From assembly GCA_001768735.1 (NCBI GenBank), contig MEMB01000002.1, forward strand, positions 699,031 through 763,030: a DNA stretch of 64,000 nucleotides. The letters run 5' to 3'. The translations under genes and the position numbers were made by a program. This stretch comes from Alphaproteobacteria bacterium GWF2_58_20 (GTDB lineage: Bacteria; Pseudomonadota; Alphaproteobacteria; UBA1247). A model generated the notes under the pieces. That model made no database searches, was not told the DNA's origin, and was given only the letters and a program-made list of their open reading frames with translations. Below, in pieces: positions 16,309 through 61,808 of this stretch. Within the stretch, counting starts at the first letter, position 1. Each line of letters starts with the position of its first letter.

Positions 16309-16767
16309 TCAGGCCCGAGGGGCAGGCGCCGGTGAAGGCATATGGCCTGCAGCTTTTTCACGCGCCATGCGGGAAGAGCGGACATCCGCCATTTTCTTCA
16401 GGAAAGCGACAACATCCCCATTCGGTGCAAGCTCTAACGGCGTGCGGTTCTTCTTGTCCTGCGCCAGAATGTCCCCGCCAATTTCCATGAGATTGAGGGC
16501 AAGAACCGGATTGTTGCGGGCCACGGCATAATGCAATGGCGTCTGTCCGGACTTGTCGCATGTATTGGCAGAAGCGCCACGACTTGCCAGCCAACCGGCA
16601 AGGCCGCAATCGTCCATCACCACCGCCATGTGCAGAACGGACACCCCCGAAATGCAGCTGTTCGGATTGATCCCCATGCCAAGGATTTTTTCCATCAAAG
16701 AAAAATTGCGCGCCTTTGCACCCGCAACCAGTGCCATTTCCATTTCTTTTTTATCTCGGCTATTCAT
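16309..16767 (-). CDS. small ankyrin-repeat protein
   Basis: GQTPLHYAVARNNPVLALNLMEIGGDILAQDKKNRTPLELA is an ankyrin consensus. The start was chosen downstream of the dnaB stop; an alternative Met lies at 16794. Confidence 0.5.
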   Translation of the reverse strand: MNSRDKKEMEMALVAGAKARNFSLMEKILGMGINPNSCISGVSVLHMAVVMDDCGLAGWLASRGASANTCDKSGQTPLHYAVARNNPVLALNLMEIGGDILAQDKKNRTPLELAPNGDVVAFLKKMADVRSSRMAREKAAGHMPSPAPAPRA

Positions 16768-16771
16768 GTTT

Positions 16772-18241
16772 TTATCCCCTGTAATCCCGTTCATCCTGGT
16801 CAAGATCCGCAAAATGCGTCCTTGCGGCATCAAAGAACAATTCCACCCCCCCTGTGGGGCCGTGACGCTGCTTGGAGATGAAGACCTCGGCCTTGTTGTG
16901 GGCCTTGGAACACCGCTCACTCCATTCTCTCCGGCGGTCCTCAAACCGCTCGTCACTTTCTTCCGCCCGCTTGATCGGTTCGGCGGCCTGCAGGTAATAT
17001 TCCTCACGGTAGATGAACATCACCACGTCCGCATCCTGCTCGATGGAACCGGATTCACGCAAGTCCGAAAGCTGGGGCCGCTTGTCTTCCCGGCTTTCCA
17101 CCGCACGACTGAGCTGTGACAGCGCGATCACCGGAACATTCAGCTCCTTGGCCAACGTCTTGAGGCCGCGGCTGATTTCCGAAATTTCCTGCACGCGATT
17201 TTCATTTTTACGCCCTGCCGAGCCATTGAGCAGCTGCAAATAGTCAACAATCAGGAGGCCATGCTTGGCCCGCGACTGCCGCATCATGCGTCGCGCCCGT
17301 GTGCGCAGGGCCGCAATGCTGAGCGCAGGTGTGGCATCCACAAAAAACGGAAGTTCCATCAGCGTCTTGCTGGCTTCAACAATCCCGCCAAAATCCGATT
17401 CCGCAATATCGCCGCGCCGGATACGATCGGAACTGACGCCGGAAATTTCTGCCAAAATACGCAAGGCCAGCTGTTCAGCCGACATTTCCAGCGAAAAGAA
17501 CATGACCGCAGCGCCTTCATCACCTTCCGATGCCTTGTAGGCCTTGGCGGCATTGAATCCGATATTGGTTGCCAGTGCGGTTTTACCCATGGCAGGACGC
17601 GCCGCCAGGATGAGCAGGTCGGAGGGATGGAGGCCACCAAGCCTCCGGTCCAGATCCCGCAAGCCCGTGGTCACGCCGGTTACATGGTTCTGACGGCGGA
17701 AGGCGGCGCTGGCCATGTCGAGCGCAGCTTGTGCCGAAGTATCCAGCCGAACGAACCCGCCCGATTGGTCTCCAAGGGTGGCAAGTTCGTAAAGCCGTTT
17801 TTCTGCCACCTCAATCTGTTCAGTGGCCGAACCATCCAGATCGTGCTTTTGTGCTTCAGACGAAATCTCCCCCCCCAGCGAGATCAGTTCCCGCCGCAAG
17901 TGAAGATCATAAAGAATGCGCCCATAATCCTCGACACTGACCAGCATCACCACCGATGCTGCCAGATCCACAAGGTAATGGGCCCCGCCAACTTCGCTCA
18001 GGGCGTCATCATTTGCAAAAAAGGCCTTGAGCGTAATCGGGGTGGCCAGCTGCCCGCGTTCCACCAGACGGAAAATGGCATCATAAATCCGGCCATGAAC
18101 CGGATTGAAGAAATGCTCCGGACGCAAAAATTCCGAAACCTTTTCCAGGCTCCTGTTGTCCACCAGCAGGGCGCCAAGAAGGGCCTGTTCGACTTCCTCA
18201 TTCTGAGGCATGACAATGGTGGCTGGTGTTTCCTGCATCAC
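16772..18241 (-). CDS. dnaB: replicative DNA helicase DnaB
   Basis: Walker A GKTALATN and DnaB C-terminal motifs (SGSIEQDADVVMFIYRE). Confidence 0.9.
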   Translation of the reverse strand: MMQETPATIVMPQNEEVEQALLGALLVDNRSLEKVSEFLRPEHFFNPVHGRIYDAIFRLVERGQLATPITLKAFFANDDALSEVGGAHYLVDLAASVVMLVSVEDYGRILYDLHLRRELISLGGEISSEAQKHDLDGSATEQIEVAEKRLYELATLGDQSGGFVRLDTSAQAALDMASAAFRRQNHVTGVTTGLRDLDRRLGGLHPSDLLILAARPAMGKTALATNIGFNAAKAYKASEGDEGAAVMFFSLEMSAEQLALRILAEISGVSSDRIRRGDIAESDFGGIVEASKTLMELPFFVDATPALSIAALRTRARRMMRQSRAKHGLLIVDYLQLLNGSAGRKNENRVQEISEISRGLKTLAKELNVPVIALSQLSRAVESREDKRPQLSDLRESGSIEQDADVVMFIYREEYYLQAAEPIKRAEESDERFEDRRREWSERCSKAHNKAEVFISKQRHGPTGGVELFFDAARTHFADLDQDERDYRG

Positions 18242-18331
18242 GTTTCCTCAAAAATGTACGAAAAGGGCCGCCCGTTTTTTACCGGGCGTCCCTCTTCATA
18301 TCATGCACGTCACTCAAGGGGGAAACCAAAA

Positions 18332-18913
18332 TCAGGCTTCGGTTTCCACCTTGTCATCCGAAACGACTTCGATGACCTCAACGAGGGTCTCTTCCTCCGC
18401 CGGAATCTTTTCTTCCGGCTGGGAGACAAGGGCAACGCCCTTTTCCCACTGGGTCTTCGCTTCATCTTCCGAACGCGCAACATTCACCGTCACCACAACC
18501 GAAACTTCCGGGTGCAGGGCGATTTCCATCGGGTACAGGCCAAGCATCTTGATTGTCTGGTTCAGGCGAACCTGCTGCCGTTCAATCGTGAATCCGGATT
18601 CCGTCACCGCAATCTCGATATCGCGGGCAGAAACGGATCCATAAAGATGACCGCCTTCAGCTGCCTGACGAATGACATTGACGACAATGGCATCCATTTT
18701 CTTCGCCACAGCTTCCGCTTCATGACGTTTTTTCAGGTTGACCGTTTCGAGCTGGGCCCGGCGCGTTTCAAACGCCTTCTTGCTCTCGTTGGTCGCCCGC
18801 AGGGCTTTCCCCTGCGGCAAAAGGTAATTGCGTGCGTAGCCGGGTTTCACCGACACGATATCGCCCATCTGACCCAGATTGGGCACACGCTCAAGAAGAA
18901 TCACGTCCATCAT
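18332..18913 (-). CDS. rplI: 50S ribosomal protein L9
   Basis: [36 protein letters not shown], with the extended C-terminus usual in alphaproteobacteria. Confidence 0.85.
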
Positions 18914-19866
18914 TCATTCTCCCGGCCAGGAAGCTTTTCCACCAATTTCAGGCGAAGGTTACTCCACTGGTCCATCATTCCAAGGCCAGCCACCGGAATG
19001 GCCAGCACATTAAACATCAGCAAACTGCCGTACAAAAACCAAACCCAAACCCGGGCACGCCGACCCCGACGGAAAGCAACCGCATGCGCCACAGCAAGCC
19101 CATCCACAAAGAATGGAACCAGCAGGATGCAAGCGAGGTTTGTTCCCGCAAAGCCAAAAATCCCGCGGCCAAAAATTCCGGCAAAGGAACAGGCGACAAA
19201 GCCTGGAAGAACCCAGCGCGACAGACGCAAGCCTGCCATTCCGGAATTCCATTCCGCTTCCTCTTTCCTTTTCCAGACAAGGCGCTGTGCCACAACCACC
19301 GATACGAACATCAGCAGCAGCCACACCACTCCGCCAAGCCCCGGAAGAATCTCCGAAAGCTTATGAAACATCTCCGACACCGCTTCCGGCGGAAGCGACA
19401 TCTGGGTGGATGCCTCAAGCACCTGCGCATCCAGAAGCGACGCGATTTTTTGCGCCGGATTGGACCATCCCGTCATCCCGCCCAGAAAGGCCACTCCCAA
19501 CATGACAAGGAAAACCCCGCATGCCGAAAGAACTTCCAGTGCGCGTGACAGACGCAGGCCAGGGCCGCGCCCTGTTTCTTCCTTGCCCATCCGGACAGCC
19601 ATTCCTCCCACCAGTGCGGCCGGAAGGCCCCATATGGCAAGAAAAACTACAGCCGCAACCTCCCCTTGCAGGAGGGCCACCCCAAAAGCTGCAACCCCTG
19701 CTGAAACCACTCCCGCAAGGGGACCAGCCGCAAATGCCGCATAATAAAGCGGCACAGGCGAAAACAGGGACAGGATGCCAGCACCCGCAAGGCCGCTCAT
19801 CGCAGACACATGCAGCCCGACACACGCAATGCCGGACAAAAGGGCTATGGCAAGAAAGGATGGCAT
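18910..19866 (-). CDS. polytopic membrane protein (DUF2232-like) in the rpsF-rpsR-rplI operon
   Basis: 318 aa with many TM helices. The position between rpsR and rplI is conserved in alphaproteobacteria. Confidence 0.5.
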
Positions 19867-60843: not shown

Positions 60844-61050
60844 ATGGCTACTGGAACAGTAAAGTGGTTTAATGCGACCAAGGGTTATGGCTTCATCACC
60901 CCGGAAGATGGCGACCGTGACGTGTTTGTGCACATCACCGCCGTTGAACAGGCTGGCCTCAAGGGTCTGCGCGATGGGCAGAAAGTGTCCTTCGACGTGA
61001 CCAACGAACGTGGCAAGCCTGCCGCGGCCAACCTCAAGGCCCTCGACTAA
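60844..61050 (+). CDS. cspA: cold-shock protein, CspA family
   Basis: MATGTVKWFNATKGYGFITPEDGDRDVFVHITAV contains RNP1 and RNP2. A GGAG RBS and a long AT-rich leader lie upstream. Confidence 0.9.
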   Translation: MATGTVKWFNATKGYGFITPEDGDRDVFVHITAVEQAGLKGLRDGQKVSFDVTNERGKPAAANLKALD

Positions 61051-61075
61051 TTCAAGGCTGCAAAGCCCTGAATGA

Positions 61076-61110
61076 AACCCCCGCCGGTGCAAACCTGCGG
61101 GGGTTTTTCT
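61076..61110. terminator. bidirectional rho-independent terminator
   Basis: CCCCCGC-cggtgcaaacct-GCGGGGG followed by TTTTT. Confidence 0.6.
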
Positions 61111-61163
61111 ATGCCCCTAATGACAAAATAGTGGCATACGACCATCACTCTTGAAAAAATGCA

Positions 61164-61808
61164 TCATTTACGAATGATCACGGGAGGCGGTTCATCCTCC
61201 CACCGCTCCCAGTAATAACTTCCTGGATGATTGGAGGGATGTTTTTCCAGCCATGCCTTCGCCAGCCCCTGAGCCTCATCCTTCTGGTTTGAGGACATGG
61301 CAGCAGAAACACGGACAGCAGATTCCTTGGCATCCTTGCGCCCATTTTCGCCTGCAACAAGATACCACATGAGGGATGCCACATTATCCTTCTCAATCCC
61401 ACCACCGTTTTCATACACATTTCCAAGCATGGACTGCGCTTCCGCATTCCCCTGCTCTGCAGACAGAAGATACCATTTCAGAGCCTCGGCATCATCCTTC
61501 TCAACACCCCGGCCTTCGGCATACATCTCCCCCAGGCTGAATTGCCCCCTTTCATTCCCCTGTTCGGCGGACTGGCGAAACCACTTCACCGCCTCTACAT
61601 CATCATGAATGACGCCAATGCCCTTGGAATACATACTACCAAGAATATTCTGCGTTTCCGCATCGCCGCTCTCGGCTTCCAACATCAATGTTGAAAAGGA
61701 CAAATCCTCGAGTGACGGAGGCGTTTGCGCGAAAGCAGGAACAGCGAAACATATGTTAACGGCAACCAGAAACATGGCGGCACAGGTGGATTTACGCATG
61801 GAACACAT
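61164..61808 (-). CDS. secreted Sel1-repeat protein
   Basis: Signal peptide, then four Sel1 repeats (AEQGNERGQFSLGEMYAEGRGVEKDDAEALKWY...). Confidence 0.7.
   Translation of the reverse strand: MCSMRKSTCAAMFLVAVNICFAVPAFAQTPPSLEDLSFSTLMLEAESGDAETQNILGSMYSKGIGVIHDDVEAVKWFRQSAEQGNERGQFSLGEMYAEGRGVEKDDAEALKWYLLSAEQGNAEAQSMLGNVYENGGGIEKDNVASLMWYLVAGENGRKDAKESAVRVSAAMSSNQKDEAQGLAKAWLEKHPSNHPGSYYWERWEDEPPPVIIRK

Follow-up and report, generated by a model that had tools for sequence, protein, structure and literature searches.

Proteins built from ankyrin (ANK), Sel1 and RCC1 repeats are the classic “eukaryotic-like” classes of Legionella and of amoeba and sponge symbionts, according to the available excerpts of three sources (PMC7542358, PMC8831229, PMC6372511). 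In intracellular bacteria, the ANK effectors of Legionella Dot/Icm (AnkB/H/X/Y, Leg), Coxiella, Anaplasma, Ehrlichia, Orientia, Wolbachia and Rickettsia occur in multiples without Sec signals, are lineage-specific and fast evolving with variable repeat number, as far as the accessible parts of PMC7542358 and PMC3932732 describe them, and are found as fusions of ANK repeats to unrelated C-terminal modules, with Sel1 and RCC1 proteins co-occurring. The same features recur in the DNA considered here, a 64-kb stretch (hereafter the window) of chromosomal DNA from the uncultured, motile aquifer alphaproteobacterium GWF2_58_20, which carries four ANK genes (ANK1 to ANK4) and two Sel1 genes (Sel1a and Sel1b), and in the further DNA read from the same genome. 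Unlike those effectors, however, the proteins of this lineage show no family-level homology to them, no type IV secretion system (T4SS) lies in the ~116 kb of genome read, the genes are embedded in housekeeping operons and not grouped in islands or prophage modules, and their bearer, a motile aquifer bacterium, is strictly anaerobic and has no known host.

Other bacterial ANK proteins are not effectors, such as ArpA and YahD of E. coli and the periplasmic AnkB of Pseudomonas. Their genes, like those described here, stand beside ordinary metabolic or housekeeping genes, but they are single and conserved, whereas in the present lineage 85 kb hold six or more, which are not conserved and evolve fast. 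Candidatus Amoebophilus asiaticus and sponge-associated Shewanella/Pseudovibrio likewise have ANK together with Sel1/TPR-type repeats interspersed along the chromosome, in the excerpts available (PMC8831229, PMC6372511), but host association is documented for these symbionts, and both the phylogenetic position and the anaerobic physiology differ here. Across 1912 surveyed bacterial strains, at least one ANK protein was found in 981 and at least four genome-wide in only 202, and ANK abundance tracked host association (PMC3932732). The ANK and Sel1 domains, the phenomenon itself and the public genome are already known. What the window adds is a genuine lineage-specific expansion of fast-evolving ANK genes, placed singly between housekeeping genes, in an anaerobic aquifer alphaproteobacterium.

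Ankyrin and Sel1 genes of the window

The repeat genes are as follows, with window positions, strand and whole-protein Pfam scores.

ANK1, 16309-16767, - strand: Ank_2 40.3 bits; 152 aa, no signal peptide
ANK2, 23206/23251-25875, + strand: Ank_2 49.4 bits; 874 aa (889 aa from the ATG at 23206)
ANK3, 40829-41638, + strand: Ank_4 80.9 and Ank_2 77.6 bits; 269 aa, no signal peptide
ANK4, 57843-58601, + strand: Ank_2 133.5 bits; 252 aa
Sel1a, 55818-56687, - strand: Sel1 81.2 bits; 289 aa, Sec-type signal peptide
Sel1b, 61164-61808, - strand: Sel1 94.5 bits; 214 aa, Sec-type signal peptide

The models were those of the Ankyrin clan (PF12796, PF00023, PF13637, PF13857 and PF13606) and Sel1 (PF08238), with Pfam gathering cut-offs of 27.3 bits for Ank_2 and 30.7 bits for Sel1. 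A preliminary description, made from the sequence of the window, had placed four ankyrin open reading frames (ORFs) at these positions, and all four score above the cut-off there as whole proteins, as expected of members of the ankyrin superfamily; in addition, the A1 profile matches designed ankyrin structures in the PDB. The description had counted five ankyrin proteins, the fifth as repeats within “the large protein”, and this count has to be lowered to four on the evidence of Pfam and a six-frame phmmer search: the large proteins of the window are AlaRS, CheA and a PAS histidine kinase by Pfam, and ankyrin repeats are found in none of them. The six-frame search, in which ANK and Sel1 proteins from the window and a consensus ANK were run against window ORFs of at least 40 aa, returned zero additional ANK or Sel1 ORFs. 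The two Sel1 ORFs with signal peptides stand as described: each has two to three separately significant Sel1 stretches in Pfam, and both N-termini are of the Sec type by eye. Signal peptides are seen in none of the window's ANK proteins, judging from N-termini and hydropathy. The gene map also bears out that the repeat genes are interspersed among core genes, each placed singly.

To put a number on this density, two comparator sets were screened in the same way with phmmer over ORFs of at least 60 aa: 80 loci centred on the gene for lysyl-tRNA synthetase (LysRS) from GTDB species (1.318 Mb), and 80 dnaB-centred metagenome loci (0.836 Mb). The LysRS loci yielded a single ANK ORF and a single Sel1 ORF, which come from the closest relatives (L006, L008); Pfam upholds the ANK, and the Sel1 match, at 26.6 bits, falls under the 30.7 cut-off; the dnaB loci hold no ANK and one weak Sel1. 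Together, 2.154 Mb from 160 other organisms contain one ANK and two Sel1 ORFs. On this baseline 0.03 ANK genes are expected per 64 kb and four are observed, a ~135-fold excess (Poisson P(>=4) = 3e-8), and at the baseline's upper 95% bound the excess still has P = 3e-5. For Sel1, 0.06 are expected and two observed (P(>=2) = 1.7e-3), and the Sel1 enrichment is statistically weaker than the ANK enrichment. The enrichment of eukaryote-like repeat proteins that had been pointed out is therefore genuine for ANK and not due to chance, and it continues beyond the window: the contiguous 85.4 kb made up of the window and upstream DNA holds six ANK and two Sel1 genes, and the 52 kb of the same genome read outside the window hold two ANK genes, or 38/Mb (95% confidence interval 4.7-139), and no Sel1.

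The source of the DNA is well documented. The window has a GC content of 56%, and compared stretches totalling ~33.6 kb (30829-64000) are 99.9-100% identical to contig DNAY01000004.1 of GCA_003485165.1, which is labelled “Rhodospirillaceae bacterium” and bears DCW68_ locus tags. An ENA assembly also matches these stretches, and the window proteins are also listed, with A2018_ tags, for a 947-kb contig of “Alphaproteobacteria bacterium GWF2_58_20”. The accessible part of PMC5714133 describes GWF2_58_20 as a Rifle aquifer metagenome-assembled genome (MAG), 97% complete and near Rhodospirillaceae, with an [FeFe]-hydrogenase and an incomplete complex I and without complex II, bc1 or bd oxidase; that of PMC6431628 categorises it as a strict anaerobe. 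At its 3' end the window has genes for rubredoxin and rubredoxin reductase and one of flavodiiron type, which are consistent with these anaerobic traits. The motility and chemotaxis genes comprise flhB, fliR, fliQ, fliE, flgC and flgB for flagellar export, a che operon and chpT. The preliminary description of a flagellated, chemotactic, “Caulobacter-like” gene set is thus right about the genes, but the label is imprecise for an anaerobic aquifer MAG of 56% GC near Rhodospirillaceae. Nor is the lineage wholly undescribed, as had been suggested, since the MAG became public in 2016 and the excerpts of both sources discuss it (PMC5714133, PMC6431628); in the accessible parts of the literature that names GWF2_58_20, no mention of ankyrin was found.

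Close relatives are few. LysRS of the window lineage (gene at 53776-55263) resembles that of Melainabacteria/Gastranaerophilales (56-60% identity) about as closely as that of other alphaproteobacteria (59-63%), and the nearest GTDB species and MAGs, at 68-73%, have zero neighbouring genes in common with the window around LysRS. The LysRS scan also gave a close relative with the label “Bdellovibrionales” and, among the more distant ones, Micavibrio with 59-60% identity. A dnaB scan of JGI metagenomes gave no close relative, the best identity being 63%.

Divergence and architecture of the repeat proteins

ANK1 lies between dnaB (16772-18238) and alr (15171-16301) with spacers of 4 nt and 7 nt, in the minus-strand order rpsF-rpsR-DUF2232-rplI-dnaB-ANK1-alr-mlaE-mlaF-radA-cvpA. 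In ~28 other alphaproteobacterial loci among the longer comparators, which keep rplI-dnaB-alr and usually then mlaE-mlaF-radA-cvpA, dnaB and alr adjoin directly with nothing between them, and an ANK ORF is present in none of the 80 dnaB loci. Among 5.8e9 clustered proteins, the homologues of ANK1 are itself and one other at 52% identity, which sits on a 1.1-kb contig between the end of DnaB (80% identical) and the start of Alr (73%). This shared position indicates that the insertion predates the split of the two lineages, and ANK1 has since diverged faster than its flanks. A long ORF at 17261-19366 was rejected as a gene, dnaB occupying the opposite strand.

ANK2 is preceded by two unknown genes and followed by fcl, gmd, alaS and recA, and its annotated start, at 23251, is later than 23206. 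Its N-terminal ~470 aa are degenerate ankyrin-type helix pairs (in an AlphaFold2 model of low confidence, pLDDT 48), and its C-terminal ~400 aa (window 24643-25872) make up an orphan all-alpha domain with a motif present in all members, PQSFDIHF...RFRPWVWLRxKFHADAW...DYRK...WQ..DPD.SF. A search of 5.8e9 proteins with full-length ANK2 found itself only, and an exhaustive search of 1.84e9 representatives with the C-terminal 410 aa found three real relatives, so that the family amounts to four clusters among these representatives. Two of the relatives are adjacent paralogues with different N-termini elsewhere in the same genome (L172 8235-12754), in a second region of 30.6 kb from a Rifle groundwater assembly. 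The third is an 864-aa ANK protein in a related organism, on a contig from a landfill leachate well (IMG 3300029288), and just upstream of it lies another member of the C-terminal family, a tandem duplication (L173 1-3322). ANK2 holds the same position in this related lineage, and the two counterparts are 32% identical, against 84% for AlaRS and 90% for RecA. The C-terminal half has no match in PDB or Pfam, a PDB profile search of the ANK2 family gave only ANK structures, and the domain family looks new. The best matches to the ANK region of ANK2 include fungal proteins, but similarity to eukaryotic ANK proteins is generic, at 26-33%.

ANK3 begins 4 nt downstream of a pncA-like isochorismatase gene (40102-40824), which follows pncB (38525-40099) in a NAD salvage series that is preceded in turn by a cytidylyltransferase-like gene. 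No orthologue of ANK3 was found, the next-best matches being generic ANK proteins of 31-43% identity over part of the length. P0033, with 37% identity and similar length, was considered as an orthologue and rejected, because its contig, of 540 kb and rich in ANK genes, is unrelated and lacks pnc genes. This ENA contig has five ANK genes in 10 kb (L175 1056-10798) and few Pfam matches otherwise, and may be a giant virus or another ANK-rich entity.

ANK4 is apparently monocistronic, between a DUF2087 gene and a gene for a 427-aa unknown protein. In the public annotation it starts at a TTG (57384) and has 405 aa, probably too great a length: the start is likely the ATG at 57843, because an AAGGGG Shine-Dalgarno sequence lies 8 nt before this codon, a terminator-like hairpin (58632-58653) follows the gene, and the longer call runs across an Rfam COG3860 RNA motif on the other strand (57448-57499, - strand; 58.8 bits against a gathering score of 42.5). 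The motif lies upstream of the DUF2087/COG3860 gene (56813-57343, - strand), in the 500-bp spacer that this gene shares with ANK4. Within ANK4 there is one further feature, which at the DNA level reads as a sign of recent internal repeat amplification.

Tandem array inside ANK4, 57957-58448, + strand: 4.8 copies of a 102-nt (34-aa) ankyrin unit with 75% matches (Tandem Repeats Finder)

Two more ANK genes lie upstream of the window.

ANK5, L176 13158-14285, ~6.3-7.4 kb upstream of the window, - strand relative to the window: 375 aa
ANK6, L176 15807-17243, ~9.0-10.4 kb upstream of the window, - strand relative to the window: 478 aa

The upstream gene order is rpoZ-relA-acpS-ANK5-AI-2E permease-ANK6-mucR-rpiB-glyA-nrdR-nusB, and in the precomputed Pfam list ANK5 and ANK6 have an unmarked Ank_2 match. 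In both, a bilobed hydrophobic segment, ~45-60 aa long and predicted to form two transmembrane helices, separates two sets of ANK repeats, an ANK-hairpin-ANK architecture that looks new. The chlamydial Inc proteins and the Wolbachia ANK proteins with transmembrane segments offer a comparison. Like these, ANK5 and ANK6 have a central bilobed stretch whose flanking soluble domains would face one compartment; unlike the situation of Inc, the only type III secretion system (T3SS) genes in the DNA read are those of the flagellar export apparatus, and the likeness is one of architecture, with no claim of sequence homology. The hairpin could simply anchor the two proteins in the bacterium's own inner membrane.

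RCC1 repeats occur as well. The second region of the genome encodes a 373-aa RCC1-repeat protein with an N-terminal membrane anchor (L172 14383-15504), and the landfill relative has a 699-aa protein with cadherin-like and RCC1 repeats between alaS and recA (L173 6656-8755), where the window has a spacer of 146 bp.

The two Sel1 proteins are of a more familiar kind. Their N-termini, MGGKILLSLVVLLASGGAWA/ED in Sel1a and MCSMRKSTCAAMFLVAVNICFAVPAFA/QT in Sel1b, show a positive n-region, a hydrophobic core and an AxA site (AWA/ED and AFA/QT), as read by eye rather than by a predictor, and hydropathy places the hydrophobic window of Sel1b at aa 7-29. Sel1a shares its strand with the DUF2087/COG3860 gene (56813-57343), lies downstream of it and may be under common regulation with it; Sel1b is monocistronic and divergent from the rubredoxin and rubredoxin-reductase genes. 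The two are 28-33% identical to each other, and against the NCBIfam models of MerG, ExoR, AlgK and MotX they reach 18-101 bits, at repeat level only and under cut-offs of 330-700. The periplasmic Sel1-repeat proteins known from proteobacteria, whether free-living or host-associated, namely ExoR (Rhizobiales), MotX (Vibrio), AlgK (Pseudomonas), MerG, Helicobacter Hcp and Legionella LpnE and EnhC, are likewise small and consist almost wholly of Sel1 repeats behind a Sec signal. Sel1a and Sel1b differ from them in that the similarity stays at repeat level without established orthology and no functional partner genes adjoin, save the DUF2087/COG3860 gene upstream of Sel1a. To judge from their sequences, the Sel1 proteins are most likely ordinary periplasmic or envelope adaptors of the bacterium itself, and they are weak indicators of a host.

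The repeat genes do not stand out in composition. GC content, GC at third codon positions (GC3) and codon usage of the six ANK and Sel1 genes of the window are within ~2 standard deviations (SD) of their neighbours, except for the GC content of ANK3 at +2.4 SD; the codon score of Sel1b and ANK4 is -1.8 SD. This composition does not support recent horizontal acquisition of the ANK and Sel1 genes. As far as the homology searches reach, the window's ANK genes are restricted to this genus-level lineage.

What the repeat proteins may act on

The reading we tentatively prefer, at a little short of an even chance, is that the ANK and RCC1 proteins have their protein targets in another cell, most plausibly a eukaryotic grazer or host. 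It rests on the joint presence of the ANK, Sel1 and RCC1 classes, the non-conservation and fast divergence of the ANK proteins, the repeat amplification in ANK4 and the modular reuse of the ANK2 C-terminal domain, traits that mark “eukaryotic-like” effector repertoires (PMC7542358, PMC8831229, PMC6372511). In particular, the identity of ANK1 (52%) beside flanks of 73-80%, that of ANK2 (32%) beside flanks of 84-90%, and the restriction to one lineage resemble the effect of pressure from an outside partner. The ANK and RCC1 proteins would then be protein-binding modules aimed at another cell's proteins; the target cell would most likely be a eukaryotic grazer or host in anoxic water; delivery would use a secretion route not visible in the DNA read; and diversifying pressure from the partner would explain the turnover of the ANK genes. 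The preliminary description held that such a density is typical of bacteria that interact with hosts. The density is real, and the pattern is best known from such bacteria, but host association is plausible here rather than proven.

Several observations weigh against an outward-facing role. The ~116 kb of genome read contain no gene of a T4SS, a type VI secretion system (T6SS) or a non-flagellar T3SS, the only genes of this kind being those of flagellar export. Against the Legionella Ank equivalogs of NCBIfam (AnkY, AnkH, AnkX, AnkG, AnkQ, AnkC and AnkF), the ANK proteins score 43-67 bits (best 66.9), below cut-offs of 450-1400, and what matches is the repeat part of the models alone. Over their last 25 residues, ANK1, ANK3 and ANK4 have a net charge of +3 to +5 and ANK2 one of -4 (window mean -0.07, SD 3.1), and such mildly basic tails are not diagnostic for a VirB/D4 signal. 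ANK1 (dnaB-ANK1-alr) and ANK3 (pncB-pncA-ANK3) are packed into housekeeping operons, a placement no less compatible with an internal function than with an effector role, and the habitats, aquifer and landfill leachate, give no direct sign of a host. As to the density itself, the comparators are all core-gene neighbourhoods and may understate ANK density elsewhere in their genomes, although the window is likewise a core-gene neighbourhood; part of the sample from outside the window was reached through the ANK2 paralogues and is not fully unbiased.

A more specific proposal is that the lineage is an unrecognised associate of anaerobic protists, as a symbiont, a parasite or grazing-resistant prey: a strictly anaerobic, flagellated, [FeFe]-hydrogenase-bearing organism of anoxic aquifers and landfill leachate, with a rapidly diversifying ANK/RCC1 arsenal that includes a hitherto undescribed ANK2-family effector domain and Inc-like hairpin ANK proteins and is seeded singly into housekeeping operons. 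This is speculative and, on balance, rather unlikely. Should the preferred reading of a target in another cell hold, this MAG and its relatives would form a new alphaproteobacterial lineage that interacts with hosts or grazers and lives without oxygen, and would add an orphan effector-type domain and an unusual habit of keeping fast-evolving repeat genes inside operons such as dnaB-alr. The accessible part of PMC5714133 discusses GWF2_58_20 as possibly related to the lineage of the mitochondrial ancestor, given that it has a hydrogenase and that its respiratory chain is reduced. For ideas on early endosymbiosis, a useful comparison would be offered by a motile alphaproteobacterium that lives without oxygen and manipulates eukaryotic cells.

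The strongest alternative keeps the proteins at home: the ANK proteins would be cytoplasmic or inner-membrane scaffolds or regulators and the Sel1 proteins periplasmic adaptors, a quirk of the lineage in a free-living anaerobe with no eukaryotic partner. We consider this a serious possibility, if a somewhat doubtful one. It accords with the place of ANK1 and ANK3 only 4-7 nt from housekeeping genes, with which they are probably co-transcribed, with the retention of the ANK1 position in the sister lineage, with the native composition, with the absence of signal peptides from the ANK proteins and with the lack of a secretion system in the DNA read. The hairpin of ANK5 and ANK6, if it sits in the bacterium's own membrane, would put both ANK lobes in the bacterial cytoplasm, and the Sel1 matches, ExoR, MotX, AlgK and MerG, are periplasmic proteins of free-living bacteria. 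In addition, ANK proteins occur in about half of all bacterial strains, and there are ANK-rich classes among free-living bacteria (PMC3932732). A fixed internal partner, however, would predict neither ANK identities of 32-52% beside flanks of 73-90% nor orthologues missing from every other lineage; the density is far above that of the 160 comparator loci; and the RCC1 proteins, the repeat amplification and the modular orphan domain better fit an outward-facing arsenal. Should the preferred reading of a target in another cell fail, the window would still hold a clear ANK expansion in a free-living anaerobe, and would call for caution in reading lifestyle from domain counts.

It is improbable that the repeat proteins are directed at other prokaryotes or at phages, whether in a Micavibrio-like predatory or epibiotic lifestyle or in ANK-containing anti-phage defence. 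In favour of this reading are the “Bdellovibrionales” label of one close relative, the presence of Micavibrio among the distant LysRS relatives, the expanded putative membrane-anchored metallopeptidases of the window (see below) and the ANK-containing PADLOC candidates PDC-M72A, “Ankyrin” and MzaA, which are matched at repeat level. But LysRS identity to Micavibrio is just 59-60%, and nothing specific to predation is found in the window. An origin in defence systems or phages was rejected, as PADLOC and PHROG models align with the repeats alone, the genes stand among housekeeping genes, and the partner genes of such systems are missing from their immediate vicinity. By sequence, the proteins are assigned to the ANK and Sel1 repeat superfamilies, and not to any characterised effector, regulator or defence family.

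Very improbable, finally, is recent horizontal acquisition of an effector set, which the preliminary description had offered as “effector acquisition”, or an artefact, be it chimeric binning or contamination from eukaryotes or viruses. Exchange of ANK repeats is common, fungal proteins are among the best matches to the ANK region of ANK2, and a restriction-modification cluster with small phage-like genes lies just past the 3' end of the window, but recent transfer was rejected on the native composition (within ~2 SD bar the GC content of ANK3, the clear outliers being only hyp175 and hyp201, described below) together with the conserved positions of ANK1 and ANK2 in related lineages, the ANK genes stand singly between core genes and form no island, the similarity to eukaryotic ANK proteins is no more than generic, and contamination or chimerism is excluded because four or more data sets independently gave the same sequence, in contigs that measure 315-947 kb.

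Other genes of the window and its surroundings

The gene directly downstream of ANK4 belongs to a second expanded family, with two paralogues near the start of the window.

hyp427, 58808-60091, + strand: directly downstream of ANK4; member of an HExxH paralogue family
hyp429, 504-1793, + strand: hyp427 paralogue
hyp402, 2152-3360, + strand: hyp427 paralogue

Two more paralogues lie just upstream of the window (L086 2645-3892 and 4076-5317), giving a family of five proteins of 400-430 aa, with paralogy E-values of 1e-15 to 1e-29. They have a short N-terminus, one transmembrane helix and Pro-rich tails, and their alignment has invariant H205, E206, H209 and E232, a gluzincin-like pattern of H-E-x-x(x)-H plus a downstream E. 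No match was found in Pfam, NCBIfam or PDB, and from the alignment they are putative membrane-anchored zinc metallopeptidases. The family shows the same pattern of lineage-specific expansion as the ANK genes, though its members are not repeat proteins. A DUF6782 putative metallopeptidase is encoded nearby, at 6245-7432.

Tandem paralogues of 52% identity, hyp175 and hyp201 (43225-43752 and 43768-44373, - strand), are the only genes of the window that clearly depart from it in composition (GC 0.49-0.50, z = -2.2 to -2.9). The two proteins share a conserved Cys...His...Asp pattern, NNC[FY]AYA ... YHWIRQD.DGGWSHKSG, and have no family match and none in a PDB profile search, the AlphaFold2 model being unusable (pLDDT 38). 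Both also carry one of the mostly basic, proline-rich C-terminal tails that are found on 13 window proteins (...RAPAPVQKGFKI, ...RAPVPMPKGFRL, ...LRAPAPALTPKGA, ...PSPAPAPRA and ...PPLKKPKAP), for example those encoded at 43225-43752, 43768-44373, 38525-40099, 40102-40824, 16309-16767 and 58808-60091. These tails are concentrated in lineage-specific proteins and occur also on PncA and PncB.

Past the 3' end of the window (~65.2-71.8 kb; L004 1-6575) lies a restriction-modification cluster with Mrr, Vsr and DNA methylase genes, followed by small phage-like ORFs and a gene for a 670-aa CBM_5_12 protein.

The window also has three tandem HAD-hydrolase paralogues, 46-63% identical (7429-10228, - strand), and there are at least three FkbM-type Methyltransf_21 genes (3411-4157, - strand; ~50871-51740, - strand; and L172 13483-14301), with manC, gmd and fcl present alongside; together these genes suggest elaborate glycan modification. 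The HAD/methyltransferase block is flanked by tRNA genes for Glu-CTC (6094-6169), Cys-GCA (10263-10336) and Asn-GTT (10409-10483).

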